Shown here one piece after another: positions 1 through 64,000 of a stretch of 64,000 bases of DNA. Position numbers and translations under genes: made by a program. Where the stretch lies: assembly GCA_017993775.1 (NCBI GenBank), contig JAGOMA010000005.1, positions 19,561 to 83,560 on the forward strand. Direction: 5' to 3'. The DNA is from Chloroflexota bacterium (GTDB lineage Bacteria > Chloroflexota > Anaerolineae > Promineifilales > Promineifilaceae). The notes below the pieces were generated by a model that worked only from the letters and a program-made list of their open reading frames with translations, was not told the DNA's origin and did not search any database. Position 1 is the stretch's first letter. Each line of letters opens with the position of its first letter.

Positions 1-1502
1 AAAAGCAGCACCTCGCGGATAGTCGGCTGGTCGGTTAGCAGCATTGTCAACCGGTCCACGCCGGTGCCAAACCCGCCGTTCGGCGGCATGCCGTAGCGCA
101 TCGCCCGCAGATAGTCTTCGTCAATCGGGTTCAGTTCGTCGTCATCTTGGGCATACATTTCCTGCAAGGCTGCAAAACGGCGCTGCTGCTCCTGCGGGTC
201 GTTCAACTCGGTAAACGCATTGCCCAATTCCATGCCGGCGATGAAATACTCAAAACGCTCTACATGCAGCGGGTCGCCGGGGATGCCTTTGGCCAGCGGC
301 GAAATATCGCGGGGGTATTGGGTGATAAAGGTCGGCTGGATGAGGTTCGGTTCGACAAAATCGCCCAGCAGGCCATCTACCAGTTTGCCCCAACTGGCTC
401 CCGGTGGCGTTTGGGTAGCCACGCCGCGCGATTTGCCCATCTGCTGAATGGCTTTGGCCAATGGCTCGGCTTCCGGGAACTGAACATAATCGATGCCGGT
501 AAATTCCAGAATCGCGTCTCGCATGGAAATGCGGTTCCACGGTGGGGCCAGGCTGATTGTGTGACCCTGGTAGGTGATGGTTGTCGTACCCAGAACATGC
601 TGGGCCACGTAGGCTAGCATGCGCTCGGTGAAATCCATCACGTCGTTGTAATCCCAGTAAGCAGCATAAAACTCGAGCTGGGTAAATTCGGGGTTGTGTT
701 TGAAGCTGACGCCTTCGTTGCGGAAGTCACGGCCGATTTCGTAGACGCGTTCGTAGCCGCCCACCAGGAGCCGTTTGAGGTAAAGTTCAAAGGAGATACG
801 CAGGTAGAGTTCTTGTTTGAGCTGGTTGTGATGGGTGGTAAACGGCCGTGCCGCCGCCCCGCCATACAAAGGCTGCAGAATGGGGGTTTCCACTTCCAAA
901 AAGTCGTGGTCTTCAAAAAAGCGGCGCAGCGCGCTGATGGTTTTGGCGCGGGCGCGGAACACATCGCGCACTTCGGGATTGACCGCGAGGTCAGCGTAAC
1001 GCTGGCGATACCGCTCTTCTACATCGGTGAAAGCGCTGTAGCGCACCAACTCGCCGTCAACCTCTTGCTCTTTGACCACCGGCAGTGGGCTGACGGCTTT
1101 GCTGAGGAGCTTCCAGTCGGAAACGCGCAGGCTTACTTCTCCGGCGCGGGTGCGAAAGAGGACGCCGGTTGCCTGCACAAAATCGCCCAGATCGAGCAGT
1201 TTGCGGAAGATGGCGTGGGATTCTTCGCCTACTTCTTCGCGGCGGATGAAAAGTTGGAAACGGCCGTGTCCATCCACAATATGCGCAAACACCGTCTTGC
1301 CCATATCCCGCATACTCACCAACCGGCCACACACCGTGGCTTTCACTTCTTCCGTTTCGGCGGCGGCGTTAAACGCCTGCATCGCTTCCGTGGTTGTATG
1401 CGTGCGTTCGCTCCGCAGCGGATACGGCTCAATGCCTGCCTCTTCCAATCGCGCCAATTTTTCCAGGCGCTGCTGCTCTAAATGCGTTGGCTGCCAGCTC
1501 AT
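1..1502 (-). CDS. lysS: lysyl-tRNA synthetase (class II), 3-prime end truncated at window edge
   Basis: Reverse-complement translation from ATG at 1502-1500 gives [32 protein letters not shown]... through ...[33 protein letters not shown]. This is the class II motif-3 region typical of LysRS and the OB-fold N-terminus. It has no stop inside the window, so it is absent from the ORF track; the plus-strand ORFs 147-617 and 696-1481 are its shadows. Confidence 0.9.
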   Translation of the reverse strand, partial: [500 protein letters not shown]

Positions 1503-1576
1503 GATGTCCTCTCCTGAATCAACAAAAAGCCCGTGTCGAGCACGGGCTGAAAAATCTATCACTGTCCTAAAAATCG

Positions 1577-2062
1577 CTAGTCGATTTTGACAACCCGAAA
1601 CTCCGTGATGCCTCGCGGAGCCTTGATACGCACAATATCATTCACCTTTGCGCCTAATAGGGCAACGCCTAACGGGCTTTCATTGGAAATGCGGCCTTCC
1701 GTAGGATCGGCCTCGGCGGCGCCAACCAGGTGGTAACGCTCTTCTTCGTCGAAGCCTACTTCCACCACAGTCACCCAATCACCCACGCGCACGTAATCAT
1801 GCGGGCCGTTGTCATCTTTGATCACCTGGTAATTTTTCAGGATTTCTTCAATTTCTTGAATGCGTCCTTCCAGAAATGATTGGGCATTCCGGGCCGCTTC
1901 CAATTCGGCGTTATCGATAAAATCGTCATCAGGGCCGTCGTCAAAAGCGCGCTGCAAACGGTCGGCGACTTCCTCCCGACCAACTGTGACCAATTGTTCG
2001 AGTTCTTTTTGTAATTTTATGAGACCTTCGGCTGTTACCAGGTAAGGTTTTCTCGTCGTCAT
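1577..2062 (-). CDS. greA: transcription elongation factor GreA
   Basis: 161 aa with an N-terminal coiled coil (LIKLQKELEQL...) and a C-terminal FKBP-like domain (YVRVGDWVTVVEVGFDEEERYHLVG). Classic greA-lysS adjacency. Confidence 0.9.
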   Translation of the reverse strand: MTTRKPYLVTAEGLIKLQKELEQLVTVGREEVADRLQRAFDDGPDDDFIDNAELEAARNAQSFLEGRIQEIEEILKNYQVIKDDNGPHDYVRVGDWVTVVEVGFDEEERYHLVGAAEADPTEGRISNESPLGVALLGAKVNDIVRIKAPRGITEFRVVKID

Positions 2063-2300
2063 ATATAACCCCCAATATAAGGGAAAACCGCTGCTGCCAG
2101 CGGCTCGTCGCCAGTAAAATTTGATTTAGGGGCGGAATTATATCAGAATTAGGCGCTTTGTAAAGTGTAAATAACCGCTCGTTTGTTCTACCCCCTGACG
2201 GCCGTATGGCCGGTTGGTGAGAGTTGGTGGAATGGCACGGACGGCCGTCTCAGATCATGTTACACTTTTTGCCGAAAACAACGTTGCAGGAAGGCAATTC

Positions 2301-3693: not shown

Positions 3694-4338
3694 CTAATTG
3701 AGCGAGAAAATGCCCTGGTCTTCTTTGGGCATCAGACGCATGTATTTCAGCTCTTGCCGGTAGATTTTTGTCAGTTCGTTGAGTACGCTGGTGGCTTTGT
3801 CGTTTTCCAGAAACGCCTGTTTTTGTTCGGCATCCACCTGTATGGCGGCCGCAGCCAGGAAAATCAGGTCTTCCGGATCCGTCGGCATCTGGTCGGAATC
3901 GAATTCGACGTGTCCGGTATCGGCTAAGATGCGCAGGTATTCGGCCACCAATGGCAGCAGGCGATTGGCCGCCTGCGCCAGCGCCTGTTCCGTTTCAGCA
4001 GCGAATGGGAAGTCTTCCATGGTCCCCATAAGGTAGGCGCGATCGTGATTTAACGAGAGGATGCGGAAACGTTCCGTGCCCACGGTCATGAGCAGGAGAC
4101 GGCCGTCTTCCAAACGTTCTACCTCTACAATCTCCGCCACACAGCCCACTTCATACGGATCGGCTACCGGCCCGCCCTCAGCAACGCCGCTGCGAATGAG
4201 AACCACGCCAAACGGCCGTTTATCATCCAGACAAAACTGGATCATCTCCCGGTACCGTTCTTCAAAAACATGCAGCGGCAGCGGCATCCCCGGAAACAAC
4301 ACGGTATTTAAAGGAAAAAGCGGCAATTCAAACATCAC
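3694..4338 (-). CDS. Lon protease N-terminal (LON substrate-binding) domain protein
   Basis: 214 aa; LPLFPLNTVLFPGMPLPLHVFEERYREMI... is the typical Lon-N / PUA-like domain organisation. Confidence 0.6.
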   Translation of the reverse strand: MMFELPLFPLNTVLFPGMPLPLHVFEERYREMIQFCLDDKRPFGVVLIRSGVAEGGPVADPYEVGCVAEIVEVERLEDGRLLLMTVGTERFRILSLNHDRAYLMGTMEDFPFAAETEQALAQAANRLLPLVAEYLRILADTGHVEFDSDQMPTDPEDLIFLAAAAIQVDAEQKQAFLENDKATSVLNELTKIYRQELKYMRLMPKEDQGIFSLN

Positions 4339-4355
4339 AAAACCCCCTTATCTAC

Positions 4356-4386
4356 CTGATATAAAAACGGGACGAAATTCATCGCC
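4356..4386 (-). terminator. intrinsic terminator downstream of pckA
   Basis: Minus-strand hairpin AAACGGGGCGA-tgaatt-TCGTCCCGTTT followed by a U-run, immediately after the pckA stop. Confidence 0.45.
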
Positions 4387-4438
4387 CCGTTTCATACTAT
4401 ACAATTATCCGAACTTAAAAATCAACCTTACTCACCCA

Positions 4439-6051
4439 TTACTGAGCTTTCGGCGCGGCTGCCTTAACTTCATCCGTCACGCCATCTTCAAATTGCTTGA
4501 AATTGTTGTTAAACATCTCCACCAATTTCTTCGCCTGTACGTCATAAGCCGCCCCATCCGTCCAGGTCGCCCGCGGATTCAACACGTCGTCCGGCACGCC
4601 TTCCACTTTCTTGGGGATTTGCAGGCCAAAGAATGGTTCCGTGGTCGTTTCCACGTTGTCCAATTCGCCATTCAACGCGGCCGTAACCATGCGGCGCGTA
4701 TACCCCAACTTCATACGGCTGCCCACACCGGCCGGGCCACCCGTCCACCCGGTATTCACCAGCCAGACCACAGAATCGTGTTTGTCGATCTTCTCGCCCA
4801 GCAGTTTGGCGTACACACCCGGATGCAAGGGCATAAACGGCGCGCCAAAACAAGCGCTGAAGTTAGGCTGCGGTTCAGTGACGCCGCGTTCCGTGCCGGC
4901 TACCTTGGCAGTATACCCGCTCAAGAAGTGGTACATTGCCTGTTCTTTCGTCAATTTGCTGATGGGAGGGAGCACACCAAACGCATCGGCCGTCAGGAAC
5001 ATCACATTACGCGGATGGTTGCCATACCCTTCGGGGTCAGCATTGTCGATGTGAGTGATCGGGTAGCTGGCGCGTGTGTTTTGTGTGTGTGTGCCATCAT
5101 CCAAATCCACCCGGCGGGTCTCACTATCAAAAATTACGTTCTCTAAAATTGTGCCAAACCGGCGCGTGGTCTGATAAATTTCCGGCTCGCCCTTCGGATC
5201 CAGACGGATTACCTTCGCGTAACAGCCGCCCTCAAAGTTAAAGACGCCGTCATCGCTCCAGCCATGCTCGTCGTCGCCAATCAGGGTACGATTCGGATCG
5301 TTGCTCAACGTGGTTTTGCCCGTGCCGCTCAGGCCAAAGAACAAAGCCGTATCGTCGCGGTCGGCGCCATAGTTGGCGCTGCAATGCATGCTCAACACGC
5401 CTTCTTTGGGCAAATAATAATTCATCGCCGAGAAAATGCTCTTCTTAATTTCACCGGCGTATTCCGTGCCGCCAATCAATACCATGCGCTTGCCAAAATC
5501 AACGAGGATAAAGGTCTGGCTGTTGGTGCCGTCAACGGCCGGGTCGGCCTTAAAGCGCGGCATGTCGATGACCGTGAACTGCGGGACATGATTTTGCAGC
5601 TTTTCCCGATTTGATTCACGAATAAACATATTCCGCGAAAACAAGTTGTGCCAGGCATATTCATTGATGATGCGCACCGGCATCCGATACCGTTCGTCTG
5701 CGCCGGCATAGCCATCAAACACAAAGATGTCGCGGTTCTGAATGTACGCCATCATTTTGCTGTGCAGCGTATCAAATTTTTCTTGCGAAAACGGCCGATT
5801 CACCTTACCCCACCAAATATCATTCTCGCTGGTGGGTTCTTTGACAACAAATTTATCGTTCGGAGAGCGGCCAGTATGGTCGCCTGTGCTTACGACAATC
5901 GGGCCAAGGTGAACAATGTTCCCTTCGCGACGTCGAATGATTTGTTCGTACAGCATGGAAGCTGAAAGGTTCCAATATACTGTACCTGGATTACTAATGC
6001 CGTGATTTTCCACCCCATAGTTGCTTACAAATGGGCCAAAGTTTTGCATGG
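4439..6051 (-). CDS. pckA: phosphoenolpyruvate carboxykinase (ATP)
   Basis: Kinase-1a motif GLSGTGKTTLS and overall ATP-PEPCK similarity. Start chosen at MQNFGPF, which has AGGAGA 6 nt upstream; the ORF track begins 11 codons earlier. Confidence 0.9.
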
Positions 6052-6265
6052 TTTCTCTCCTATTCACAAATAAACGAAACAAACTCTACCTGACAATTAG
6101 TGTACTTGGGCAAGCAAACAAAAACAACTCACAAGCAAACAAAACCGTCACGAATTATTCGTGAAAAATGTCACAAAAGCAATTTGTTGAGAATTCAACG
6201 GGTTGTGACTATGAGACGTTGCCGATAAAATAACTGTTATGCCTGAAATGAACAAGGAGGTAGAT

Positions 6266-6364
6266 ATGGATCCGATTGGTTTGTTAGTGATGGGTGTGTT
6301 TATTATTCTCGTCGCCGTTGCGGCTATTGTTCCCGGATTTCAGCGCAAGAGAGAAGAGCAGTAA
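6266..6364 (+). CDS. small hydrophobic peptide (32 aa), hypothetical
   Basis: Strong RBS AGGAGG 6 nt before ATG. Sequence MDPIGLLVMGVFIILVAVAAIVPGFQRKREEQ is a single TM helix with a basic C-terminus. Below the ORF-track size cutoff. Followed by a strong hairpin terminator. Confidence 0.35.
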   Translation: MDPIGLLVMGVFIILVAVAAIVPGFQRKREEQ

Positions 6365-6380
6365 ACGGAACGTGGCGCAG

Positions 6381-6439
6381 CGTCAGGCGTCAAATGTCAT
6401 CCTGGCGTAATGGCAGCCGCATGACATTTGACGCCTGAC
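6381..6439. terminator. bidirectional hairpin terminator
   Basis: Near-perfect inverted repeat CGTCAGGCGTCAAATGTCAT ... ATGACATTTGACGCCTGAC lying between the small plus-strand ORF and the minus-strand ABC transporter stop. Confidence 0.5.
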
Positions 6440-6445
6440 CATACA

Positions 6446-8410
6446 TCATGACGCTTCGAGCATGATATTTTCGTCGTTGATCTTGGGTTTGAATTGTGTT
6501 TCGTATAAATTCGCATACAGGCCATCTTGCGCCAGCAGCGATTCGTGTGTGCCTTTTTCGACCAACTGCCCCTTCTCCATAACCAGAATGACATCGGCCG
6601 CCAGGATGGTGGAAAGCCGGTGGGCAATGACCAGGCTGGTGCGCCCTTTCATCACCCGCTGCAAGGCTTCTTGAATCAACGCTTCCGATAGCGAGTCGAG
6701 GTGAGATGTAGCTTCGTCTAATACCAGGATGCGCGGGTTTTTGAGGATGACGCGGGCGATAGCAATGCGCTGACGCTCGCCGCCGCTGAGGCGGTAGCCG
6801 CGTTCTCCGACAACGGTGTCGTAGCCGTCGGGCAGGTCGGCGATGAAATCGTGAATGTTGGCGGCTTTGGCGGCGGCAATCATTTGCGCTTCGCTGGCGT
6901 CGGGTTTGGCGTAGAGCAGGTTGGCGCGGATGGTGTCGTAGAACAGGTAGGTTTCTTGGGTGACCATGCCGATGTTGTTGGCCAGGGTGTGCAGGGTGAG
7001 GTCTTTGATGTCGTGGTTGTCGAGGAGGATACGGCCGTTTGTCGGATCATACAAGCGCGGTATGAGATAGGTAATGGTCGTCTTGCCAGCTCCGCTGGGA
7101 CCCACCAGCGCCACCAACTGTCCTGGTTCGATGGTAAAGTCGATGGCTTGCAAGGCCCAACGGTTGAGAACGGGCACGGCCGTTTCCTCATCTTGCGCCT
7201 CGCCATCGCGCTGTTTGCCCCGCTTCAGGTGTACATCACTGCCGCCCCAGCCAAAACGGGCGATCTCTTGCAGTCCCACCTGCCCGCTTTCCTGGTCTAC
7301 GTAGGTAAAGGCGACATCCTGAAATTGCAGACGGCCGTTCACCTGTTCCAGCGCTACCGCCTCCGGCTTCTCCTGAATCTCCACCGGCATATCCAACGCC
7401 TCAAACACCCGCTCGAAACTCACCATGCTTTGCGCAAACTCCACCGGCGCATTGGTCAGGGCCATCAGCGGGCCATAAAGCTGGTTCAGATAGGCGCCAA
7501 ATGCCACAATCGTGCCAATGGTAAAGGCATCCTGCAAAACCAGCAGGCCGCCCACCCAATAAACCACGGCCACGCCCACCGCGCTCACCACGCTGAGCAG
7601 CATAAAAAACCAGCGCCCGATCACCGCCGAACGAATGCCGATATCACGCACTTCGGCCGCGTCGTGGCTAAATCGATCCACCTCACGTCGTTCGCGGCCA
7701 AATAATTTCACCAGCAGCGCCCCGCTGACATTCAGCGTCTCGTTCATGGTGGCGTTCATCTCGGCGTTGTGCTCCATCGACCTGCGGCGCAAATCGCGCA
7801 GCACACGCCCAATGCGCCGCGCCGGCAGCACAAACAGGGGCAAAATGGCCAGCGCCAGCAGCGTCAGCCGCCATTCCAGGGCCAACATAATCGCCAGCGT
7901 GGCTACCAATGAGACAATGTTGGAGATAATGGTCACCAGCGTGTTGCTGATGGCTTGCTGCGCGCCAACCACGTCGTTGTTCAGCCGCGACATCAGCTCG
8001 CCAGTGCGCGTCTGGGTGAAAAAGCGCAGCGACATATGCTGCATGTGTTCGTAGAGCGTGCAGCGCAAGTCAAAAATCACCCCTTCGCCAATTTGCGAAT
8101 TTAAGTTTCGCTGCCACACGCCGATGACGCCGTTTACCAGTGGGATCAAGACCATGCCCAGAGCGACCAGATTTAGCAGGGTGTAGTTTTTTTCAGGCAG
8201 AGCGGTGTCGATGAGGGCGCGCATGAGCAGCGGCGACAGCAGCGACAGACCGGTAATGAGCAAAATTGTAACCAGCAGCAGGACAACCTGACCTTGATAC
8301 GGCCGTGCAAAGTCCCACACCCGCCACAACAAATCCCGCGTAATCGTCGGTCGATCTTGCGCTTCGTCGTGCCGGATATACGCAAACCAACCACCACCAT
8401 GAAAAGCCAT
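6446..8410 (-). CDS. ABC transporter, fused permease/ATP-binding exporter (MsbA-like)
   Basis: Six-TM exporter domain followed by an NBD with Walker A (GPSGAGKTT), ABC signature (LSGGERQRIAIAR) and Walker B (ILVLDEATS). Start chosen at MAFHGG with GGAGGA 5 nt upstream. Confidence 0.85.
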   Translation of the reverse strand: MAFHGGGWFAYIRHDEAQDRPTITRDLLWRVWDFARPYQGQVVLLLVTILLITGLSLLSPLLMRALIDTALPEKNYTLLNLVALGMVLIPLVNGVIGVWQRNLNSQIGEGVIFDLRCTLYEHMQHMSLRFFTQTRTGELMSRLNNDVVGAQQAISNTLVTIISNIVSLVATLAIMLALEWRLTLLALAILPLFVLPARRIGRVLRDLRRRSMEHNAEMNATMNETLNVSGALLVKLFGRERREVDRFSHDAAEVRDIGIRSAVIGRWFFMLLSVVSAVGVAVVYWVGGLLVLQDAFTIGTIVAFGAYLNQLYGPLMALTNAPVEFAQSMVSFERVFEALDMPVEIQEKPEAVALEQVNGRLQFQDVAFTYVDQESGQVGLQEIARFGWGGSDVHLKRGKQRDGEAQDEETAVPVLNRWALQAIDFTIEPGQLVALVGPSGAGKTTITYLIPRLYDPTNGRILLDNHDIKDLTLHTLANNIGMVTQETYLFYDTIRANLLYAKPDASEAQMIAAAKAANIHDFIADLPDGYDTVVGERGYRLSGGERQRIAIARVILKNPRILVLDEATSHLDSLSEALIQEALQRVMKGRTSLVIAHRLSTILAADVILVMEKGQLVEKGTHESLLAQDGLYANLYETQFKPKINDENIMLEAS

Positions 8411-9462: not shown

Positions 9463-10044
9463 TTATTTGAGGTTCTCTTGAATTTGCGCCGTCAGTTCAT
9501 TTACCGGCACATACATCGTGCCGCCGTTTTGCGGCGCGCCATAATCACGAATCCAGGCGATACGGCCGTTACCATCCACCAGAATAAACGTATGCCCCGG
9601 CTCGCCGCCCGCCGTCGCCCACTGCATCACATCATACGCCTCCGGCACCTGCTTGCTGGGGTCGCTGAGCAGCGGCGTGGTAACGCCATATTCCGCCGCG
9701 CCGCCCACCAACTGCTCCACCGGGTCCACCGTAATGCTTATCAACTGCACGCCAAGCTGCTGAAAGGTTAGGTCTTGTTGCAGATCCACGATCTGCTGCA
9801 TGCAGGGCGGTCAACCCACCGCCATGTGGAAAAACAACAGAACAGGCGTGCCGGCATACTCACTGAGCGAAACAGTTTGCCCGGTCACGTCCGGCAAACT
9901 AAAGTCCGGCGCCAACGCACCGACTTGCACACCCGTAGGCTCAGCCTCCGGCGTGCCGGCGCTGCCACAAGCCGCCAGCGCCAACAGCAACAAAAACGCC
10001 AGCGGCGCCAGCCAACGATGCTTAATCACTCTAAAATCGTTCAT
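9463..10044 (-). CDS. peroxiredoxin/AhpC-TSA-like thiol peroxidase lipoprotein with in-frame TGA (candidate selenocysteine, UxxC) at 9811-9813
   Basis: Two ORF-track entries (9811-10320 and 9463-9801) are in the same frame, separated only by TGA. The upstream part has RBS GGAGG, MNDFRVIKHRWLAPLAFLLLLALAACGS (lipoprotein signal) and ...APDFSLPDVTGQTVSLSEYAGTPVLLFFHMAVG. Then comes TGA, then PPCMQQIVDL...GVQLISITVDP...PLLSDPSKQVPEAYDV...HTFILVDGNGRIAW. This places the TGA exactly where Prx/AhpC proteins have the peroxidatic Cys (FxxxxxxCPTE), giving U-P-P-C. A 7-bp stem / GUG-loop hairpin starts 14 nt downstream of the UGA. Confidence 0.5.
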
Positions 10045-10103
10045 TTTTGAACCCTGCCTCCAATTAAATTGAGCTTTTCGCACTGCCGCATCCCATAGGA
10101 ACG

Positions 10104-10313
10104 ATTCCGCACCGCGTAGGAACGGTTCCGCACCGCGTAGCAATGGTTCCGCACCGCGTAGCAATGGTTCCGCACCGCGTAGGAACGGTTCCGCACCGCG
10201 TAGGAACGGTTCCGCACCGCGTAGGAACGGTTCCGCACCGCGTAGCAATGGTTCCGCACCGCGTAGCAATGGTTCCGCACCGCGTAGCAACGGTTCCGCA
10301 CCGCGTAGCAATG
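10104..10313. repeat. 21-bp tandem repeat array, ~10 units (TTCCGCACCGCGTAGGAACGG / TTCCGCACCGCGTAGCAATGG)
   Basis: Ten head-to-tail units of two alternating variants, lying between the copA stop (10337) and the Prx-like start (10044). They produce spurious 7-aa periodic ORFs (EPLLRGA..., VPHRVAM...) on both strands. Confidence 0.85.
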
Positions 10314-10336
10314 GTTCCACAGCAAAGTACGAGCCT

Positions 10337-13425: not shown

Positions 13426-13440
13426 ATCGATTTACCTCGC

Positions 13441-13473: not shown

Positions 13474-13788
13474 AAAAAGAGTATAGATCGGGACATGCCA
13501 GTTGTCAAATGAGTGTTTGGCGGATTGAGTCGCAGCCGGTTTCAACCGGCGTTGCTGTGCAGCCGGGGCGTTTACGCCTCGGCGGAACCGCCCCAGGCAA
13601 TTACAGTGCGCGAGTATGCAACGCTCTAGTTTGGCAACAGCAGCGAGAGGTTAAGCGGCGACATTTGTGGTTTAATTCAGCGGGATGAGGGGGAACGGCC
13701 GTTCCCCCATGCGATCATGGACAAACCCACCCGAAAGCGTTAAAAATAAGGCCAACGGTTTACAATCAATTTAAAGAGGAAACGCGCT

Positions 13789-19560: not shown

Positions 19561-19949
19561 ACCTTACCTCAACTTTTCAGGTGTAAAACTGGGGCATACG
19601 TTACCTGAAAAGCGTAAGAAATGTATCAAAACGGCCGTTTCCCTTACACAACCCTTACAAATTCTTAGCCCAACGATAACCGTGTCTTAAACGGCCGTTA
19701 ACACCTGCCCCCTACTGCTTAACAACTTTTACAGCCAGGCCTGGCAGCCGGTCGAATTTCAGAAGCGAATGGCACGGCCGTGCCCCACGCCATGCCCGCC
19801 CCTGCCACAAGCCCGCAAATAAGAGATAAAACAGTTCATACGGCCGTCTTACACTTCTCTGACTTACTTCTAACATTCATCCATACAATAGAAGCATACA
19901 CAAAAAGTAAACACCTGAACTTGTTTCAGATGATTGTTGGAGGATGATC

Positions 19950-27722: not shown

Positions 27723-27763
27723 ACCGCTGCGGACGGCCGTTTGCAAACGGCCGTCCGCAGCGC
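27723..27763 (-). terminator. hairpin terminator built on ACGGCCGT palindromes
   Basis: GCTGCGGACGGCCGTTTGCAAACGGCCGTCCGCAGC perfect inverted repeat just downstream of the stop of ORF 27775-28098. Confidence 0.5.
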
Positions 27764-33831: not shown

Positions 33832-34217
33832 AACTACTCAGATTATCGTCGTTAGGTTAGCAGACAGGTTAGGGACACAGGCTTAACGACGATACAGATA
33901 ATATACGAAAAAACGGCCGTCCTGTTGCGTCCACGGAGTTAAAACGGCCGTATGCACCTTCCAGGCCATATTTTACCTTTTCTCGCCAGCTTAACCAGAC
34001 AACAAACCGTCATTCGCGCGGTTGTTACAAAGGAACGGCCGTTCCTTTGTTCGCTTTAGACATCAAAATGGGGTTGAGCAGATTAAAACTCTCTTGTAGA
34101 ATAATCCAGACAAAAAAACAATCGGACAATGACGCACCAAAAACTTGTCAACGGTAACCAGGACGTTACCACGAACAAAGCTTTTGCGTGCGTTTTTTTG
34201 TACCAAAGGGAAAATTC

Positions 34218-37939: not shown

Positions 37940-40552
<2,613 letters not shown>

Positions 40553-49487: not shown

Positions 49488-49671
49488 GCTTGCCCCAGAG
49501 TGGTCCAATCTCCTTGCGGAGTAAAATTAAATGGTACTGTTATAAGGGCGACCCGATGGGTCGCCCGGTTTGCGTTTTGGGCCAGCGGGCTATTCACTGC
49601 TACCACCAAGCCCTATCGAAATGCGGTATAATCCGCAGCCAATAAGACCCAACAAAACGAGGCAACCAGCC

Positions 49672-50841
49672 ATGAGCATAGCCATTGATTCAACTTATAC
49701 CGTGCAAACGTTAACCGACCTGGTGCAAATCAATTCCGTCAACCCGGAATTATCGCCGGAGGGGGCGGGCGAAACGGCCGTCGCCGCCTACGTCGCCCAG
49801 GCGCTGCGCACAATGGGTCTGGAAGTGACCACCTACGACCTTGGCCCCAGACGGATGAACGTGGTGGGCGTGCTGACAGGGACGGGCAACGGCCGTGCCC
49901 TGCTCCTGAACGCCCACATGGACACGGTGGGCGTGGGCGGCATGGTTAATCCCTTTGGCGCGGTGATGCGCGACGGCCGTTTATACGGCCGTGGCGCGCA
50001 AGACATGAAGGGCAGCCTGGCCGCCATGATCGCCGCCGTCAAAGCCCTGGTCGATGGCGGGGTGCAGTTGGCCGGGGATGTGCTGCTAACGGCCGTGGCC
50101 GACGAAGAATACGCCAGCATCGGCACAGACGATCTCGTGCGCCACGTCACCGCCGACGCCGCCATCGTCACCGAACCCACCGATATGAGCCTCTGCCGCG
50201 CCCATCGCGGCTTCATCTGGTTCGAAGTGGAAACGATTGGCCGCGCCGCCCACGGCAGCCGCTACACCGAAGGCGTCGACGCCATCACCCATATGGGCCG
50301 CTTCCTGGTAGAGCTGGAAGCATTGGGGCAGGAACTGCTGCAGCGGCCGCCCCACCCGCTGGCCGGACCACCCTCCATCCACGCCTCGCTGCTGCAAGGC
50401 GGCAGCGAACTCAGCGTCTATCCGGCGCGCTGCACCCTGAAACTGGAACGGCGCACCATCCCCGGCGAGACGGTGGCCCAGGCCACGGCCGAACTCCAGG
50501 CGCTCATCGACCGGTTGGCGGCGGCTGATCCTGATTTTCGGGCGACGGTACGGCCGTTTTTCGACCGCGAGCCGTTTGAGGTTGCCGCCGACGCGCCGAT
50601 TGTGCAGGCGCTGGCCCAGGCAGGCACGGCCGTTTTGCGCCAGCCGCCCGCCCACACCGGAGCCACCTTCTGGACCGACGCCGCCATCCTGGCAGCCGCA
50701 GGCATAGACACTGTGCTGATGGGACCTATCGGGGCCGGGCTGCATAGTGACGAAGAGTGGGTTGAGGTACAATCCGTGCTGGATCTGGCGCAAATTTTAG
50801 CGGAAACGGCCGTCAACTTTTGCAAATTACCTATAGACTAG
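49672..50841 (+). CDS. M20 family metallopeptidase (ArgE/DapE-like deacylase)
   Basis: NAHMDTV, GAQDMKG and ADEE motifs. Start chosen at MSIAIDS; the ORF track extends 34 codons upstream. Confidence 0.8.
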   Translation: MSIAIDSTYTVQTLTDLVQINSVNPELSPEGAGETAVAAYVAQALRTMGLEVTTYDLGPRRMNVVGVLTGTGNGRALLLNAHMDTVGVGGMVNPFGAVMRDGRLYGRGAQDMKGSLAAMIAAVKALVDGGVQLAGDVLLTAVADEEYASIGTDDLVRHVTADAAIVTEPTDMSLCRAHRGFIWFEVETIGRAAHGSRYTEGVDAITHMGRFLVELEALGQELLQRPPHPLAGPPSIHASLLQGGSELSVYPARCTLKLERRTIPGETVAQATAELQALIDRLAAADPDFRATVRPFFDREPFEVAADAPIVQALAQAGTAVLRQPPAHTGATFWTDAAILAAAGIDTVLMGPIGAGLHSDEEWVEVQSVLDLAQILAETAVNFCKLPID

Positions 50842-54478: not shown

Positions 54479-56125
54479 ATGGCTAAACGAGAAGCGCTTT
54501 CCAGTGTAGACGCCGCCTGGTTGGGCATGGAAGACCCCACCAACCTCATGATGGTCTCCGGTATTTTGACCTTTGATGAGGTATTGGATTTTGATGAATT
54601 TATCCAGGTCGTGGTACACCGCTGGCTGAGATTTGACCGCTTCCGGCAGCGCGTGGTGCATCCGAAACGGCCGTTAGCCGGCCCGCAGTGGGAGTTCGAC
54701 CCCAATTTCAACATCAACGCCCACGTTCACCGCGTCGCCTTGCCGGCCCCCGGCGACTACCACACGCTGCAAAACATGATCAGCGACCTGATGAGTACGC
54801 CCCTCGATTACAGCAAGCCTTTGTGGCAGTGTCATTTCATCGAAGGCTACGAACAGGGCACGGTCGTCATGTCGCGGCTGCATCACGCCATCGCCGATGG
54901 CATCGCCCTGATGTACGTGCTGCTGTCGATGGCCGACACATCGCCGGAAGCTTCTCTGAACCACCCCACCGTACAAACCGATGAAACCCGTCGCGAGCGC
55001 AGCGGTCGGTTTGGTTTGTTGGGGTCGCTGGCGCGGCAGGCGTCGACGGCCGTACACACCGCCCGCGACGTCACCGGCCTCCTCGTCCATGAAGGGCTAG
55101 AAACCGTCAACAATCCCTCTCACGCCGTCGATAGGGCCGTGCAAGGCACCGAAGCGGCGCTGGCCGCCGGCCGTCTCATCTTCCGCACGCCTGATCCCAA
55201 GACATTGTTCAAGGGCGAGTTGGGCGTCGCCAAACGCGCATCCTGGTCCAGACCACTGTCCTTGGCCGAAGTGAAAGCCATCAAAAACGTCACCGGCGGC
55301 ACCGTCAACGATGTGTTAGTCTCGGCCATGACCGGCGCGGTGCGCGCCTACATGCAGCAGCGCGGCGCGCCTGTGGACGGGGTAGCCTTCCGGGCGGCCA
55401 TGCCGGTGAATATCCGGCCGCCTGAAAAAATGGAAGAGCTGGGCAACCAATTTGGCATCATTTATCTGACGCTGCCTGTGAACATAGGCGATCCATTGGA
55501 CCGCCTGGTTGAGGTGCGGCGGCGGATGGAAGAATTGAAAAACACCCCCGAAGCGGTGGTCGCCTTTGGCATTCTGAAGGGGATTGGCATGTCGCCGGCG
55601 GAAGCGCAGACCCGTATGGTAGATATGTTTGGCAGCAAGGCAACGGTGGTAATGACCAACGTGCCAGGGCCGCAAATGCCTCTGTATATTGCCGGGAAAG
55701 AATTGGCCGGAATTATGGCCTGGGTGCCGCAATCTGGCCGGGTGGCGCTGGGACTCAGCATCATCAGCTACAATGGCAAAGTGTTCGTCGGCGTAAACAC
55801 CGACGAAGGGCTGGTCCCAGACCCGGATGCCATCATGGATGCATTCTATGCCGAGTTTGACAACTTGCTGGAGTTGGCGCGGCAGGTAGAGGCGTTGCCC
55901 AAGCAGGCGGCTCCGGCGAAAGGGGCAAATGTGGCGCTGGTAAATGTGAACACGGCCGTTCTGGCCGACCTGGAAATCTTACCGGGGGTTGGAGCCAGCA
56001 TCGCGCAGCGGATCATTGCCTACCGCGACGAGCATGGCCCCTTCCCCACCGTCGAATCGCTGACTCAGGTGACCGGCATTGGGAGCAAAAAATTACAGCT
56101 TTTTGCCGACCAGATTACTGTGTAA
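54479..56125 (+). CDS. WS/DGAT acyltransferase fused to C-terminal ComEA-type HhH domain (tandem paralog)
   Basis: HHAIADG and the same architecture. C-terminus VALVNVNTAVLADLEILPGVGASIAQRIIAYRDEHGPFPTVESLTQVTGIGSKKLQLFADQITV. About 60% identical by eye to the upstream copy. Confidence 0.8.
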   Translation: MAKREALSSVDAAWLGMEDPTNLMMVSGILTFDEVLDFDEFIQVVVHRWLRFDRFRQRVVHPKRPLAGPQWEFDPNFNINAHVHRVALPAPGDYHTLQNMISDLMSTPLDYSKPLWQCHFIEGYEQGTVVMSRLHHAIADGIALMYVLLSMADTSPEASLNHPTVQTDETRRERSGRFGLLGSLARQASTAVHTARDVTGLLVHEGLETVNNPSHAVDRAVQGTEAALAAGRLIFRTPDPKTLFKGELGVAKRASWSRPLSLAEVKAIKNVTGGTVNDVLVSAMTGAVRAYMQQRGAPVDGVAFRAAMPVNIRPPEKMEELGNQFGIIYLTLPVNIGDPLDRLVEVRRRMEELKNTPEAVVAFGILKGIGMSPAEAQTRMVDMFGSKATVVMTNVPGPQMPLYIAGKELAGIMAWVPQSGRVALGLSIISYNGKVFVGVNTDEGLVPDPDAIMDAFYAEFDNLLELARQVEALPKQAAPAKGANVALVNVNTAVLADLEILPGVGASIAQRIIAYRDEHGPFPTVESLTQVTGIGSKKLQLFADQITV

Positions 56126-57820: not shown

Positions 57821-57855
57821 GGCTTGCTGGACAATCGTTCGGTTTTGCTTTGGCA

Positions 57856-62459: not shown

Positions 62460-62640
62460 TTTCCACCTCGTTCCAGGGCAAATTATAACGCAAAAGGCGG
62501 GCAACTGGCCGAGTTGGGCAAAGTCGCTCGCCGAAACGTTTTCCGAAACGGCCGTCGCAACGAAGGGGAAACGGCCGTCTCCTAAACTGTCTATATCGAT
62601 AACAAACACATCGAAAACTGACAAAAGGAGCGAGGACATC

Positions 62641-63120
62641 ATGTTAGGTAATCTACAAATCAACCCGCAAGGGATCATTAATTCGCAAGCCACCGCCTAC
62701 GAAGCCTCTCGTTCCCACTACGCCAAGGTCTTCTCGCGGCTGGCAATGACAGCCAAGTGGCGTCAATTTTGCGCCTGGCTCACGGGCAGCCACCGCGAAC
62801 TGCTCAATTTGAATGCTTGCGGGCAGGTGAACGGCCGTCATTACCTGGGTGTGCGTCTGGTCCCGCTGGCGCAAATCACCGGCAGCGAAGGGCGCGCCGC
62901 CGACTACGACATCGACTTTTTGCCCCGCCAGCAGCACGACGAAGACCGCTGGGTCGGCGTGGCCACCGCCCGCAGAATGGGCAAACCGATGCCGCCGGTA
63001 GAGCTGGTGCAAATCGGCCGCAACTACTTTGTCCGCGATGGTCACCATCGCATCTCCATCGCTCGCGCTCTGGGCGAGCTGGAAATTGAAGCTGAAGTAA
63101 CCCGTTGGGAAACCAACTAA
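62641..63120 (+). CDS. ParB-like nuclease (ParBc) domain protein
   Basis: Strong RBS AAGGAG. The C-terminal VELVQIGRNYFVRDGHHRISIARALG carries the DGHHR ParB/Srx-type motif; 159 aa. Confidence 0.55.
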   Translation: MLGNLQINPQGIINSQATAYEASRSHYAKVFSRLAMTAKWRQFCAWLTGSHRELLNLNACGQVNGRHYLGVRLVPLAQITGSEGRAADYDIDFLPRQQHDEDRWVGVATARRMGKPMPPVELVQIGRNYFVRDGHHRISIARALGELEIEAEVTRWETN

Positions 63121-63296
63121 CACATTTTGGCAATCCCTACTGGAAACCGCATCCGTGAGCAATCGGGGGTGCGGTTTTTTGATTTGAGAGCTGTCCCAGC
63201 GCTCCTATCAGCCCATACAGGATTGACATCTGCCGTGATTGGGGTAGCATTTGCCCATTAACCACACTGATTCAGCATATGTTTAGGAGAATTCCC

Positions 63297-64000
63297 ATGG
63301 AAAAGAAGCTCGCAGAATTAAAGCGACGTCTGCTAGAAGTTGACGATTTGAATGGCGCGACGGCCGTTTTGAATTGGGATCAGGCAACCTACATGCCCCC
63401 AGCCGGAGCGGCTGCCCGTGGCCGCCAGCTCGCCACCCTCAGCCAGATGGCGCACGAAAAGTTTGTCGCCCCGGAAATTGGCAAGCTGTTGGATGATTTA
63501 CGGCCGTATGCCGAATCCCTGCCCTACGACAACGACGACGCCAGCCTCATTCGCATCACCCGCCGCCAATACGACAAGTCCACGAAAGTTCCCTCCACCC
63601 TGCTGGGCGCGTTTTACCAACATTCAGCCGCAACCTATCAGGTGTGGACTCAGGCGCGGCCGGCCAATGATTTTACGGCCGTGCAACCCTACCTGGAAAA
63701 AACCCTCGACTTCAGCCGCCAGATCGCCAATTGCTTCCCCGGCTACGACCACATCGCCGATCCCCTCATCGACTTTTCCGACGAAGGCATGAAAGCCGAA
63801 TCGGTTCGCGCCTTGTTCAGCGAACTGCGCGCCCAACTGGTTCCCATTGTCCAGGCCATCATCGCCCAACCAGAGGCCGATAACAGCTGCCTGCACCATT
63901 CCTTCCCCGAAACCGACCAGTTGGCATTTGGCAAAAAAGTCATCGAGGCCTACGGCTTCGACTTCAAAGGCGGGCGGCAAGACAAAACCCACCATCCCTT
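63297..64000 (+). CDS. carboxypeptidase Taq-like metallopeptidase (M32), 5-prime part, continues beyond window
   Basis: RBS AGGAGA 6 nt before ATG 63297. MEKKLAELKRRLLEVDDLNGATAVLNWDQATYMPPAGAAARGRQLATL matches the M32 N-terminus. No stop in the window, so it is absent from the ORF track. Confidence 0.8.
   Translation, partial: MEKKLAELKRRLLEVDDLNGATAVLNWDQATYMPPAGAAARGRQLATLSQMAHEKFVAPEIGKLLDDLRPYAESLPYDNDDASLIRITRRQYDKSTKVPSTLLGAFYQHSAATYQVWTQARPANDFTAVQPYLEKTLDFSRQIANCFPGYDHIADPLIDFSDEGMKAESVRALFSELRAQLVPIVQAIIAQPEADNSCLHHSFPETDQLAFGKKVIEAYGFDFKGGRQDKTHHP

Follow-up and report, generated by a model that had tools for sequence, protein, structure and literature searches.

The cyanobacterial highly iterated palindrome HIP1 (GCGATCGC) (Elhai 2015, PMC4390886; Xu et al. 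2018, PMC5861425) and the alternate HIPs of exceptional cyanobacteria (TCGATCGA, GGGATCCC, GGCGCC, rCCGGy, and GCsGC) are repeated sequences for which a biased-conversion ratchet has been proposed by Elhai (Elhai 2015, PMC4390886). The palindromic octamer described here, ACGGCCGT, resembles HIP1 in being a GC-rich 8-bp palindrome in which an outer base pair encloses a 6-bp core, in its density of approximately 1 to 3 copies per kb and its tens-fold enrichment, in the occupation of all three reading frames as well as intergenic DNA, and in having one-off variants biased toward the first and last base and a conservation between genomes that is above background. HIP1 copies are periodic at the tens-of-kilobases scale. 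The two elements differ in that the core is CGATCG in cyanobacterial HIP1 and CGGCCG, with no GATC, in the Chloroflexota octamer, and cognate methyltransferases are known for HIP1. Among the alternate cyanobacterial HIPs, related lineages exchange the outer bases on one core or keep the core alone, and the occurrence of ACGGCCGT, TCGGCCGA, or bare CGGCCG in the Chloroflexota parallels that of GCGATCGC versus TCGATCGA.

Other systems share some of these features. RAATTY of C. jejuni is a methylated DNA-uptake or "self" signal, and, like ACGGCCGT, RAATTY, the Neisseria DUS, and the Pasteurellaceae USS occur about once per kilobase, encode peptides that are over-represented in the proteome, and form some intergenic hairpins. 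However, DUS and USS are asymmetric 9- to 12-mers enriched in terminators and intergenic DNA, whereas ACGGCCGT is palindromic, mostly intragenic, and dense in phage-like DNA and has a local strand-polar footprint. The E. coli very-short-patch (VSP) Dcm/Vsr (CCWGG) and methyl-directed Dam/MutH (GATC) systems couple a methylated palindrome to a site-specific nick and short or long excision. Biased repair by VSP and methyl-directed mismatch repair changes site frequency, and the sign of the ACGGCCGT footprint fits 5'-to-3' excision from a nick, but VSP repair makes its sites more or less frequent by some tens of per cent, compared to 30- to 70-fold for ACGGCCGT, and no vsr, mutH, or dcm-like genes were found in the sequence available. 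Like ACGGCCGT, Chi is an over-represented octamer in a G/T-rich context, may serve in protection or recombination, and is acquired by phages as well, but it is asymmetric, oriented with replication, and enriched only a few-fold.

Abundance and distribution of the octamer

The DNA analysed, a 64-kb stretch (the window), comes from a Promineifilaceae-like Chloroflexota MAG and spans a housekeeping region. It contains 127 exact copies of ACGGCCGT (2.0 per kb), which start at the following positions, each copy running from start to start+7:

Part 1: 842, 1260, 2198, 2241, 2385, 2890, 2985, 3063, 3387, 4099, 4212, 7031, 7176, 7331, 8299, 9246, 9562, 11057, 11445, 11765, 12591, 13695, 14756, 15466, 15532, 15783, 16030, 16781, 17549, 17808, 18089, 19631, 19691, 19774, 19840
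Part 2: 21240, 21805, 21972, 22047, 22246, 22522, 23273, 23467, 24224, 24260, 24416, 24804, 25113, 25677, 26713, 26989, 27355, 27733, 27747, 27880, 28774, 30379, 30571, 30901, 30937, 31298, 33117, 33473, 33913, 33944, 34035, 34711, 35403, 35537, 37315, 38098, 38444, 38527, 39032
Part 3: 40049, 40675, 40880, 40910, 41409, 42702, 44169, 44822, 45515, 46324, 47010, 47033, 47678, 48318, 48516, 48550, 49027, 49774, 49889, 49973, 49985, 50089, 50550, 50626, 50806, 51280, 51514, 52373, 53970, 54349, 54667, 55046, 55952, 56273, 56613, 56793, 57443, 58144, 58473
Part 4: 60064, 60349, 60637, 60690, 61672, 61942, 62107, 62341, 62548, 62571, 62831, 63360, 63500, 63675

Dinucleotide shuffles gave an expectation of 1.67 copies (maximum of 5 in 100 shuffles), and Markov models of order 2, 3, and 4 gave 2.8, 4.9, and 11.1, respectively; expectations at orders 5 and 6 were high (50 and 98) solely because these models already contain 6- and 7-mers of the motif itself. 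The runner-up palindromic octamer had 8 copies. Genes on the plus strand held 62 copies, genes on the minus strand 50, and intergenic DNA 15, for a density of 1.94 per kb in coding and 2.34 per kb in non-coding DNA, and the spacing was Poisson-like (CV of 0.95; variance/mean of 1.05 per 4 kb). These results partly confirmed what an earlier sequence-only reading had observed. Its hyper-abundant palindromic octamer over the whole window, in genes of both strands and between genes, held up against the 1.7 to 4.9 copies expected, including at the Markov order 3 that it had named as a check, but it had over-counted the copies (about 3 per kb, 150 to 200 in all) and put the enrichment at about 100-fold rather than the 26- to 76-fold found here, depending on the null model. 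Nor was its extended motif found as described: the 14-mer GAAACGGCCGTTTC had no exact occurrence in the 64-kb window, AACGGCCGTT had 28 and AAACGGCCGTTT 5, and the flanks showed only a statistical preference, for GGAA before and TTCC after ACGGCCGT. Its phasing and hairpin coordinates also required correction, as described below. Three regions illustrate the local variation in density:

19631..19847: dnaK upstream region (383 bp), 4 copies (19631, 19691, 19774, 19840)
49570..50841, + strand: M20 peptidase gene, more densely occupied than any other gene of the window (8 copies within 1.27 kb, 49774-50806)
4220..7030: longest stretch without copies (2.8 kb), taking in the whole PEPCK gene (4439-6082)

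The local density upstream of dnaK is approximately 10 per kb in unconstrained DNA, and a comparison of the four copies there revealed no flanking repeat in common. The copy-free stretch is not significant, since about 0.45 such gaps are expected (Poisson, mean of 499 bp).

Codon phase and saturation

The 112 copies within ORFs were distributed over the phases ACG-GCC-GTn, nAC-GGC-CGT, and nnA-CGG-CCG-Tnn as 54, 38, and 20 (48, 34, and 18%), which is not the "overwhelming" ACG-GCC-GTn phasing previously claimed; the bias is modest and exists because only certain peptides can host the motif. Every one of the 54 Thr-Ala-Val (TAV) tripeptides in the window was encoded as ACG-GCC-GTn and every one of the 38 [YHND]-Gly-Arg as nAC-GGC-CGT, compared to 9.6 and 2.1 expected from codon usage, and 20 of the 22 compatible xRPx peptides were motif encoded (0.4 expected). 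TAV itself was 6-fold over-represented, with 8.9 copies expected from amino-acid frequencies. The motif-encoded share of compatible peptides was 11/11, 11/11, 12/12, 15/16, 14/15, and 13/14 in relatives and 66/67 in mobile elements. One-base variants fell mostly at the outer positions, with 26 at positions 1/8 versus 9 internal in the window and 85 versus 36 when pooled, and the most frequent internal variant was C to T at the first C of CGGCCG. Because essentially all compatible peptides carry the motif and intergenic DNA is occupied too, these results demonstrate that the pressure for ACGGCCGT acts on DNA and is near-saturating, with the protein sequence bent toward the motif. The conclusion of DNA-level selection in the sequence-only reading was therefore right, but saturation and the intergenic copies, not the frame bias that it gave as the reason, carry it.

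The likeness to HIP1 that it had also proposed was borne out when the same quantities were measured on HIP1. In cyanobacterial loci, 28 of 29 AIA and 20 of 21 [SGRC]DR peptides were HIP1 encoded, the phases were split 28/20/12 (47, 33, and 20%), the HIP1-encoded tripeptide occurred 29 times versus 4.1 expected, and the outer-base variants matched. Its interpretation as a whole was thus supported in part, for the HIP1 likeness and the DNA-level pressure but neither for the frame-bias argument nor for hairpins as a general property.

A strand-polar GC-skew footprint

The ACGGCCGT sites sit at a switch in GC skew, with the 5' side G-rich and the 3' side C-rich on both strands. The 5' skew was +0.37 at 3 to 10 nt, +0.17 at 11 to 20 nt, +0.15 at 21 to 40 nt, and +0.07 at 41 to 70 nt, and the 3' side mirrored it; the footprint thus reaches approximately 70 nt and fades within about 70 to 100 nt. 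Its symmetry held for coding orientation, for each of the three phases, and for intergenic sites. The footprint was seen at 87% of individual sites (p = 3e-34 versus random positions) and was strongest at synonymous positions. At four-fold sites, G and C were.518 and.238 upstream and.213 and.556 downstream, compared to a background of.326 and.413, while C/(C+T) was.374 upstream and.665 downstream and G/(A+G).573 and.306. Words enriched in the 5' flank were GTGG, GGTG, GTGT, TGTGG, and GGTGG. No footprint was detected at incomplete sites, neither at 85 one-off ACGGCCGV nor at 222 BCGGCCGV sites, demonstrating that this symmetric strand-polar feature is exclusive to the complete octamer. At four-fold sites it is a direct C-to-G swap in which T is not gained, which simple single-strand deamination does not predict, so that selection may favor G-rich 5' arms, for example through a protein or RecA-type preference. 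Synonymous divergence near the sites was slightly but not significantly lower (0.116 versus 0.157). Motif-dense mobile elements were saturated with the motif yet had almost no footprint, and therefore saturation and footprint are separable. At HIP1, no GC-skew footprint was present at 100 chromosomal and 96 plasmid sites. The roughly 70-nt skew switch is thus a new feature relative to HIP1 and may offer a clue to the underlying mechanism; it is consequently not established that all HIPs share one mechanism.

Related lineages and mobile elements

ACGGCCGT was present at 0.6 to 4 copies per kb in seven other Chloroflexota loci, whether related or distant, and in contigs resembling phages or plasmids. 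The ACGGCCGT form was found in the window, L001, L201 to L205, and L065, while L004 had TCGGCCGA in its place (17 copies; 1.4 expected) and L002 and L003 were enriched for CGGCCG with the outer bases not fixed; each of these variants is represented by single loci of 7 to 20 kb, and the pairs of TCGGCCGA recovered by scanning metagenomes were mostly due to chance. Conservation of sites between relatives, a check that the sequence-only reading had suggested, was far above that of other octamers: 19 of 19 window sites were retained in L201 (0.57 to 0.64 for other octamers) and 7 of 9 in L205 (0.14 to 0.24). Orthologous sites in the window and its relatives showed no indels, and site gains involving an amino-acid change fell in variable regions. 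Orthologous sites were also compared in one gene:

37940..40552, - strand: clpB, five copies (38098, 38444, 38527, 39032, 40049)

Across six genomes (84 to 96% amino-acid identity), two of these sites were present in all six and the other three in two to four, and the alternative states were mostly changed at positions 1/8 (for example, CCGGCCGT and ACGGCCGC). Taken together, these comparisons demonstrate that ACGGCCGT arises via point substitution, not insertion, and is kept or regained across lineages. The motif also fills phage- and plasmid-like DNA, with 1.5 to 4 copies per kb in the phage-like locus L081, which encodes a terminase small subunit, and in 44 other IMG/VR loci; because these loci are dense in it, ACGGCCGT is no restriction target.

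Proposed mechanism and alternative explanations

ACGGCCGT is best read as the highly iterated palindrome of a Promineifilaceae-like Chloroflexota lineage and the functional counterpart of HIP1, built from the core CGGCCG (an EagI-type site), which differs from that of HIP1, and a lineage-specific outer base pair. Methyltransferase- or repair-driven bias and a recombination signal are the leading mechanisms, and we tentatively favor, at somewhat less than even odds, a HIP-type element that is maintained through site-specific nick-and-repair, probably linked to methylation. The full octamer would be read by a symmetric (dimeric), site-specific enzyme system, in which an orphan cytosine methyltransferase that modifies the CGGCCG core would most likely work alongside a nicking or mismatch-type endonuclease. 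Each strand would be nicked at the site, followed by 5'-to-3' excision and resynthesis over tens of nucleotides, and mismatches in near-cognate sequences would be settled in favor of the site-bearing strand, a biased-conversion ratchet that would push copy number up. Recurrent excision would leave the complementary strand single-stranded, so that both strands would acquire a 5' flank rich in G/T and a 3' flank rich in C/A. The sign of the footprint would fit each strand's 5' flank being the part that stays unpaired once the site has been nicked or broken and 5'-to-3' excision has followed. The sites may serve the cell in strand discrimination during repair, as recombination hotspots, or as a "self" mark, but the ratchet would explain their abundance without any such use. 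The enzymes are purely inferred, since neither the window nor any fetched chromosomal locus contained a methyltransferase, Vsr/MutH-like, or restriction gene. Elhai's G-meC rule is not transferable to the A..T outer pair of ACGGCCGT, being inapplicable if the first C is methylated, because A precedes that C.

The motif could instead mark DNA as "self" by its methylation or act as an uptake signal in natural transformation, a role now proposed for HIP1 as well, and would then have spread by preferential uptake and recombination of motif-bearing DNA. The density of about 1 to 2 per kb and the over-represented motif-encoded peptides are the expected product of such a drive, as the USS/DUS work of Redfield and colleagues reportedly found, and the few intergenic copies that form hairpins recall DUS pairs in terminators. 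HIP1 raises transformation in a way that depends on methylation (10.1101/2024.09.10.611283) and correlates with uptake machinery (10.64898/2026.06.24.733823). However, uptake predicts neither a symmetric strand-polar footprint tied to the complete octamer nor phage-like genomes saturated above host density, terminators and intergenic DNA are not enriched overall, and the window holds no competence genes other than ComEA-like HHH_3 domains fused to acyltransferases. Uptake therefore fits a palindromic, mostly intragenic, strand-polar motif that is dense in phage-like contigs less well, and we consider it rather unlikely. Another reading is a palindromic Chi-like recombination hotspot or anti-nuclease signal, at which broken DNA would be processed up to the site and RecA loaded on the 3' tail, with selection favoring sites and G/T-rich 5' arms both in the chromosome and in phages facing the host nuclease. 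The 5' flank of each strand would correspond to that 3' tail and carries GT-rich words typical of Chi and RecA-preferred DNA, phage- and plasmid-like contigs outdo the chromosome in copies, as if the site protected incoming DNA, and a Chi-like role has already been suggested for HIP1. This role nonetheless appears unlikely: known Chi sites are asymmetric, replication-oriented, and only few-fold enriched, post-Chi tails are kilobases long while the footprint fades within about 70 to 100 nt, mobile elements have sites without GT-rich arms, and selection could hardly be sustained on each of the roughly 10^4 sites in a genome, the saturation suggesting drive.

The requirement for a complete octamer would also suit a binding site for an abundant chromosome-organising protein of the nucleoid-associated or condensin-loading type, whose dimer would touch G-rich DNA outward both ways, with selection keeping sites and flanks. 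Each half-site has the same flank preference (GGAA-ACGG) with no selection for complementarity between sides, synonymous divergence near sites is slightly, although not significantly, down, and a link between HIP1 and chromosome architecture has been reported (PMC5861425). We find such a protein improbable as the cause, for it leaves unexplained the conversion of every compatible codon triplet, the saturation of phage-like genomes, and the random rather than regular spacing. A by-product of codon or amino-acid usage, a miniature mobile element, and an assembly or sequencing artefact were considered since the motif is mostly genic and some related MAGs derive from long reads, but nothing positive speaks for them and they are almost certainly wrong. 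Shuffling synonymous codons left 29 copies versus 127, of which 15 were the untouched intergenic copies, codon usage accounted for only 9.6 of the 54 TAV sites, and all three phases and intergenic DNA were occupied. Orthologous sites lacked indels, flanks shared only a compositional preference, and the motif was present in independent NCBI, ENA, JGI, and IMG/VR assemblies made by differing methods; together, these results refute this reading.

Extended palindromes

Three hairpins had been noted earlier, and all exist, at slightly different coordinates:

13689..13708: 20-bp perfect palindrome GGGGGAACGGCCGTTCCCCC, copy at centre, directly after the stop of ORF 13395-13688
27725..27762: 38-bp perfect palindrome CGCTGCGGACGGCCGTTTG/CAAACGGCCGTCCGCAGCG, one copy per arm (27733, 27747)
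34027..34050: 24-bp perfect palindrome ACAAAGGAACGGCCGTTCCTTTGT, copy at centre, intergenic

That the octamer generally nucleates hairpins, as had been claimed, was true of only these 3 of the 127 sites. Flank complementarity at ACGGCCGT sites was at the level given by per-position base frequencies, and predicted folding energy around them did not differ from that of random genomic flanks bearing the motif. The palindrome extended at most 1 bp beyond the octamer at 115 of 127 sites and at least 6 bp at only two, including 13689..13708, compared to about 0.1 expected. The 38-bp palindrome lies between genes, upstream of where the S8 peptidase gene starts (27557), and the 24-bp palindrome precedes the ATP-grasp gene (34188) by 138 nt.

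Results

Abundance, reading phases and codon saturation of the octamer

An exact count of the palindrome ACGGCCGT (a CGGCCG core with an outer A and T; hereafter the octamer) gave 127 copies in the 64-kb window, or 2.0/kb. Dinucleotide-preserving shuffles led us to expect 1.67 copies (maximum 5), and maximal-order Markov models 2.8 (order 2), 4.9 (order 3) or 11.1 (order 4), for an observed/expected ratio of 26 (Markov order 3) to 76 (shuffles). Markov orders 5 and 6 come near the observed count only because those models are built from the octamer's own 6- and 7-mers. The octamer is the top-ranked 8-mer of the window, the ranks below it are its overlaps (CGGCCGTT, AACGGCCG and others), and the runner-up palindromic octamer has 8 copies. 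The hyper-abundance noticed in a sequence-only reading is thus real, at lower values than the 150 to 200 copies and approximately 100-fold enrichment estimated there. As for extended forms, AACGGCCGTT occurs 28 times and AAACGGCCGTTT 5 times, and GAAACGGCCGTTTC does not occur.

Reading phases were taken from a greedy ORF set spanning 90% of the window. The octamer was read as ACG-GCC-GTn in 54 cases, as nAC-GGC-CGT in 38 and as nnA-CGG-CCG-Tnn in 20, with 15 copies intergenic, and the phasing, previously described as overwhelmingly ACG-GCC-GTn, is therefore a moderate bias. The octamer does lie both in genes and in intergenic DNA, as had been stated: 112 copies (88%) are inside ORFs, and the density is about equal in coding (1.94/kb) and non-coding DNA (2.34/kb). 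Spacing was Poisson-like at scales up to 4 kb within the 64-kb window (CV 0.95; variance/mean 1.05 per 4-kb bin). The longest octamer-free stretch (4220-7030, 2.8 kb) spans the whole PEPCK gene, whose nearest relatives beyond the family come from cyanobacteria and Nitrospinota (64% identity); this gap is not significant under Poisson spacing. The dnaK upstream region (19561-19943) has four copies in 383 bp, approximately five times the average density.

Peptides compatible with the octamer were almost always encoded by it. Within the ORF set, all 54 Thr-Ala-Val tripeptides were encoded ACG-GCC-GTn (9.6 predicted from codon usage), as were all 38 [Tyr/His/Asn/Asp]-Gly-Arg by nAC-GGC-CGT (2.1 predicted) and 20 of the 22 compatible x-Arg-Pro-x by nnA-CGG-CCG-Tnn (0.4 predicted); over the three phases together, the codon-usage prediction is 12 copies against the 112 in coding DNA. 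A synonymous-codon shuffle within genes left 29 octamers, 15 of which were the intergenic copies outside the shuffle, and would have yielded 32 variants mismatched at positions 3/6, of which 0 were observed. Codon or amino-acid bias as the cause is ruled out by these predictions and the shuffle. The pressure acts on DNA, as the sequence-only reading had suspected, and is close to saturating. The protein sequence is also bent towards the octamer: the excess of TAV and ETAV seen by eye in the translations is borne out by 54 TAV versus 8.9 expected from amino-acid frequencies (its permutations number 4 to 15 each) and by 12 ETAV versus 0.5 expected.

One-base variants in the window numbered 26 at the two outer positions versus 9 at the six inner positions, and 85 versus 36 when pooled over seven loci (199 kb). 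The most frequent inner variant in the pooled set was ATGGCCGT/ACGGCCAT, a C->T change at the first C of CGGCCG.

A strand-polar footprint at complete octamers

Flanks of 273 chromosomal sites were pooled symmetrically. On the 5' side, (G-C)/(G+C) was +0.37 at 3-10 nt, +0.17 at 11-20, +0.15 at 21-40, +0.07 at 41-70 and +0.03 at 71-100, and the 3' side was the mirror image, so that the GC skew switches across the site (hereafter the footprint). T was slightly more frequent than A on the 5' side, and the 5' arm was rich in GT-rich words (GGGG, GTGG, GGTG, GTGT, TGTGG, GGTGG) and poor in CA-rich words. The footprint was symmetric when sites were oriented by coding strand, was seen in all three phases and at intergenic sites, and peaked at third codon positions. 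At four-fold sites, G was.518 and C.238 upstream and C was.556 and G.213 downstream, against a background of G.326 and C.413; at two-fold sites, C/(C+T) was.374 upstream and.665 downstream, and G/(A+G).573 and.306, respectively.

The footprint was present at 87% of individual window sites (p = 3e-34 versus random positions) and in the distant chromosomal locus L065, and was weaker around TCGGCCGA, a variant octamer with outer T..A on the same core, in the chromosomal locus L004. It was absent at CGGCCG outside the octamer, at GGCC and at last-base-only variants (n=85). Bound strictly to the complete octamer, the footprint provides a new kind of clue, namely that something directional befalls the DNA at these sites.

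Conservation of sites in relatives and lineage variants

The window ClpB matches MBP6470193.1, from a MAG labelled 'Chloroflexota bacterium', at 100% identity, and its nearest named relatives are from Candidatus Promineifilaceae, Ardenticatenaceae and Ca. Leptofilum. ClpB homologues were used for synteny, as the relatives found in a PEPCK scan were too distant. Each ClpB locus carried many more octamers than the 0.7 to 1.7 expected, and codon saturation was present in every locus tabulated.

Table. Octamers in related chromosomal loci (locus; identity to the window protein; octamers; length)
L201; ClpB 96%; 44; 22.6 kb
L202; ClpB 93%; 23; 22.6 kb
L203; ClpB 87%; 28; 22.6 kb
L204; ClpB 85%; 28; 22.6 kb
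L205 (Ca. Leptofilum, 6.36-Mb genome); ClpB 84%; 26; 22.6 kb
L065 (MAG); PEPCK 58%; 27; 21.6 kb
L001 (Promineifilaceae MAG); PEPCK 78%; 9; 14 kb

Sites were kept between genomes at rates well above those of background octamers. All 19 window sites compared with L201 (90-95% nucleotide identity) were kept, versus 0.57 of other octamers or 0.64 of those with an identical peptide; in the comparison with L205 (about 74-79% identity), 7 of 9 were kept versus 0.14, or 7 of 8 versus 0.24 at the same peptide. A further comparison of related genomes gave 6 of 7 versus 0.28. Where one lineage lacked a site despite the same peptide, the sequence there was usually another octamer on the CGGCCG core (NCGGCCGN), and gained sites with an amino-acid change fell in variable regions, such as DnaK column 1716 (AAV / EAA / EAV / TAV / TAV). 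Synonymous divergence, plotted against distance to sites, showed a small, non-significant dip near them.

Other lineages differ in the outer bases. In L004, TCGGCCGA takes the place of ACGGCCGT (17 copies versus 1.4 expected); TCGGCCGA pairs among the metagenome matches listed were mostly chance pairs and add little support for this variant. Two further chromosomal loci, L003 (JBFMFT010000264.1) and L002, have CGGCCG without fixed outer bases (58 in 7.4 kb and 42 in 20.5 kb, respectively) and no flank skew; this richness may represent a hexamer-type highly iterated palindrome (HIP) or a compositional or repeat effect.

Phage- and plasmid-like contigs

An IMG/VR scan for octamer pairs yielded 45 loci (395 kb) with 965 copies at 1.5-4 copies/kb, and TAV was octamer-encoded in 66 of 67 cases in these mobile elements. 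One contig, L081, encodes a terminase small subunit and a DnaC-like loader and looks like a phage. Another, the 100-kb 'viral' contig L097 (IMGVR_UViG_3300033417_000002; 3.7 octamers/kb), encodes ParA, an anti-repressor, a lytic transglycosylase and an FtsK/TraB-like ATPase, a gene content that would suit a conjugative element or a phage-plasmid better than a phage. The footprint was nearly absent in these octamer-dense elements. The octamer is enriched in the host and more so in phage- and plasmid-like contigs; since mobile DNA does not avoid it, this argues against a restriction target, and we ruled out a restriction-modification site under avoidance, which would be depleted.

Hairpins, mobile elements and assembly artefacts

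The sequence-only reading had the octamer nucleate perfect hairpins outside genes, and three intergenic extended palindromes are indeed real:

13689-13708, unstranded, extended palindrome at an intergenic octamer site
27725-27762, unstranded, extended palindrome with two octamer copies at intergenic sites
34027-34050, unstranded, extended palindrome at an intergenic octamer site

They are exceptions rather than a general property of the sites. The palindrome extends by at most 1 bp at 115 of 127 sites, complementarity between the two flanks equals the expectation from per-position base frequencies, and the predicted folding energy of sites with their flanks is that of random genomic flanks around the octamer. 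Flank complementarity and folding energy at expectation rule out general selection for a hairpin or cruciform.

REP and MITE repeats are intergenic, insertion-spread units of at least 20 bp with conserved flanks, whereas the conserved unit here is 8 bp only, the flanks show compositional preference, and most copies are in ORFs. In codon alignments covering five syntenic genes as well as ClpB, DnaK and DnaJ, 0 indels fell at octamer sites, and we therefore rejected insertion of a small mobile element. The octamer was present in NCBI, ENA, JGI and IMG/VR assemblies built by differing methods. It is not a hairpin element, a mobile element or an artefact.

Comparison with cyanobacterial HIP1

We took a HIP to be a GC-rich palindromic octamer that is the dominant 8-mer, at roughly 0.5-2.5 copies/kb and at least 15-fold over expectation. 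The octamer has this abundance and rank, occurs in all frames and in non-coding DNA beyond codon or amino-acid usage, deviates by one base preferentially at the first and last positions with the core hexamer kept, and is conserved above background octamers, also at the same peptide. HIP1 (GCGATCGC, CGATCG core) was measured in cyanobacterial regions around kaiC and in 150 kb of the Nostoc PCC 7120 alpha plasmid. In a Synechococcus elongatus-like kaiABC locus there were 70 HIP1 copies in 21.5 kb; HIP1 encoded 28 of 29 Ala-Ile-Ala (3.7 expected; AIA was 7-fold over-represented) and 20 of 21 [SGRC]-Asp-Arg, and its phases of 28/20/12 are nearly the same split as the octamer's. No statement of HIP1 codon saturation and AIA excess in that form was found in the HIP1 literature examined. 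One-base variants biased to the outer bases and conserved sites have been described for HIP1 (PMC4390886, PMC5861425), and periodicity of its sites over tens of kilobases has been reported (Xu et al. 2018, PMC5861425).

The two palindromes are thus alike in codon saturation, tripeptide excess, phase split, outer-base variant bias and conservation, and the resemblance to HIP1 suggested by the sequence-only reading holds on measured HIP1 loci. They are unlike in the footprint, which was absent at the 100 chromosomal and 96 plasmid HIP1 sites examined. The octamer is a HIP by behaviour and falls outside the HIP1 sequence family (cyanobacterial GCGATCGC or derivatives with a CGATCG/GATC core), because core and phylum, here that of a Chloroflexota MAG, both differ.

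Gene content and search for enzymes

A Pfam scan of all 50 window ORFs described an ordinary chromosomal region, encoding a class II aminoacyl-tRNA synthetase, PEPCK, an ABC exporter, a P-type metal ATPase, DnaK-GrpE-DnaJ, ClpB, G6PD, 6PGD, a glycogen debranching enzyme, M20 peptidases and a BTAD-NTPase-TPR regulator. There were no DNA methyltransferase, Vsr, MutH or restriction genes among these ORFs, no competence genes in the window, and no Rfam families or tRNAs in scans of it. In search of a cognate (orphan) enzyme for the core or full site, a signature scan detected no m5C methyltransferase in any fetched locus. The N4/N6 part of the scan, with Pfam run on its candidates, yielded one Dam-like methyltransferase and two of N6_N4 type, confined to two of the phage-like loci, which is no consistent association with the octamer.

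Discussion

These results demonstrate a saturating, DNA-level, substitution-based process that needs the full 8-bp palindrome and operates on chromosomal and mobile DNA, accompanied in chromosomes by a symmetric strand-polar footprint. The best explanation, which we advance tentatively, is site-specific nicking or cutting followed by repair, with a symmetric enzyme system and copies ratcheting upwards. Such a system would recognize the octamer and nick or cut there, after which a tract of tens of nucleotides would be excised 5'->3' and resynthesized. That geometry would leave the 5' flank of each strand unpaired, which would match the sign of the footprint as well as the two-fold-site shifts from C to T and from A to G. 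If near-cognate mismatches were repaired towards the strand with the (methylated) site, copies would ratchet up. Dcm/Vsr drives such a ratchet weakly in E. coli. A biased-repair ratchet has been proposed for HIPs by Elhai (PMC4390886). Nick-and-repair has weak points: the window and fetched loci yielded no enzyme, four-fold sites swap C to G without the T gain that plain deamination predicts, mobile elements have the octamer nearly without the footprint, and HIP1 has none.

The octamer might instead mark methylated self DNA or DNA for uptake, which we consider unlikely. DNA uptake sequences (DUS/USS) are asymmetric 9-12-mers with frequent inverted terminator pairs and intergenic enrichment, whereas the octamer is palindromic, has about equal coding and non-coding densities and lies in extended hairpins at 3 of 127 sites. 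Such sequences are preferentially taken up through competence machinery with a motif-specific receptor, and competence genes are missing from the window. A palindromic Chi-like recombination or anti-nuclease signal would fit the GT-rich words of the 5' arm and the extra density in phages, but the length scale and asymmetry of known Chi, which is recognized by RecBCD/AddAB and co-aligned in orientation with replication, speak against it for a site that is its own reverse complement, and we regard it as quite unlikely. A binding site for a putative abundant chromosome-organizing protein is a further reading, which we judge improbable. Codon bias, a mobile element or an artefact, against which the shuffles, the orthologous alignments and the range of assemblies all stand, can be practically discounted.

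A bolder form of nick-and-repair is possible, if doubtful: ACGGCCGT would mark approximately 10^4 places per genome that are repeatedly nicked or cut on both strands by dedicated enzymes, with a short tract resynthesized each time. Acting as a sequence-level gene drive on chromosome, plasmids and phages alike, the process would create new copies from synonymous positions and even from non-synonymous ones, and the GC-skew switch would be the mutational scar it leaves. If so, these Chloroflexota would offer the first direct genomic read-out of how HIPs are made, and lineages that differ in the outer pair (A..T, T..A or none) would be a natural experiment for the responsible genes.

The observation itself is solid, and the HIP1 comparison is measured. 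To our knowledge, HIP1 has been known for three decades (since the 1990s) with no agreed function or origin. The literature we found on iterated palindromes concerned cyanobacteria throughout, and we found in it no prior account of ACGGCCGT, of CGGCCG over-representation or of Promineifilaceae with such an element. New here is HIP behaviour in another phylum, on a new core and with a new flank footprint. An independent HIP with the same quantitative behaviour makes the phenomenon general and not a cyanobacterial oddity. A second HIP phylum permits comparative tests, such as for genes co-occurring with HIPs in both phyla, and lineage-specific outer bases provide contrasts within one family. Distortion of codon usage and tripeptide content by the octamer has consequences for annotation, detection of horizontal gene transfer and phylogenetics, and the octamer could act as a host signature for binning and for assigning phages and plasmids to these Chloroflexota, which are abundant in wastewater and soil.

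Other features of the window and loci

In L202, 12718-13599 and 19191-22592 hold an Mrr-type (methylation-dependent) restriction gene adjoining clpB and a mutS whose intein has a LAGLIDADG domain. In the window, a lipoprotein signal peptide is present on a TlpA/AhpC-TSA-like thiol-disulfide oxidoreductase (9463-10320, minus strand) whose reading frame is broken into two ORFs by an internal TGA (9813-9811), exactly at the first Cys of its CxxC redox motif (..FFHMAVG-TGA-PPCMQQ..). The pair may encode a selenocysteine (UxxC) protein or else be a pseudogene; a hairpin downstream has no statistical support (z = -0.47). Two related 21-bp tandem arrays without the octamer lie in intergenic or small-ORF regions, at 10096-10318 (10.6 copies of TAGCAACGGTTCCGCACCGCG, 95% match) and 23762-24005 (11.8 copies of GAAGCAACCATTTCTCCCGGC). 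Adjacent paralogous wax-ester-synthase/DGAT acyltransferases (52812-54440 and 54479-56125, both plus strand) each have a C-terminal ComEA-like helix-hairpin-helix (HHH_3) DNA-binding domain, an unusual fusion.
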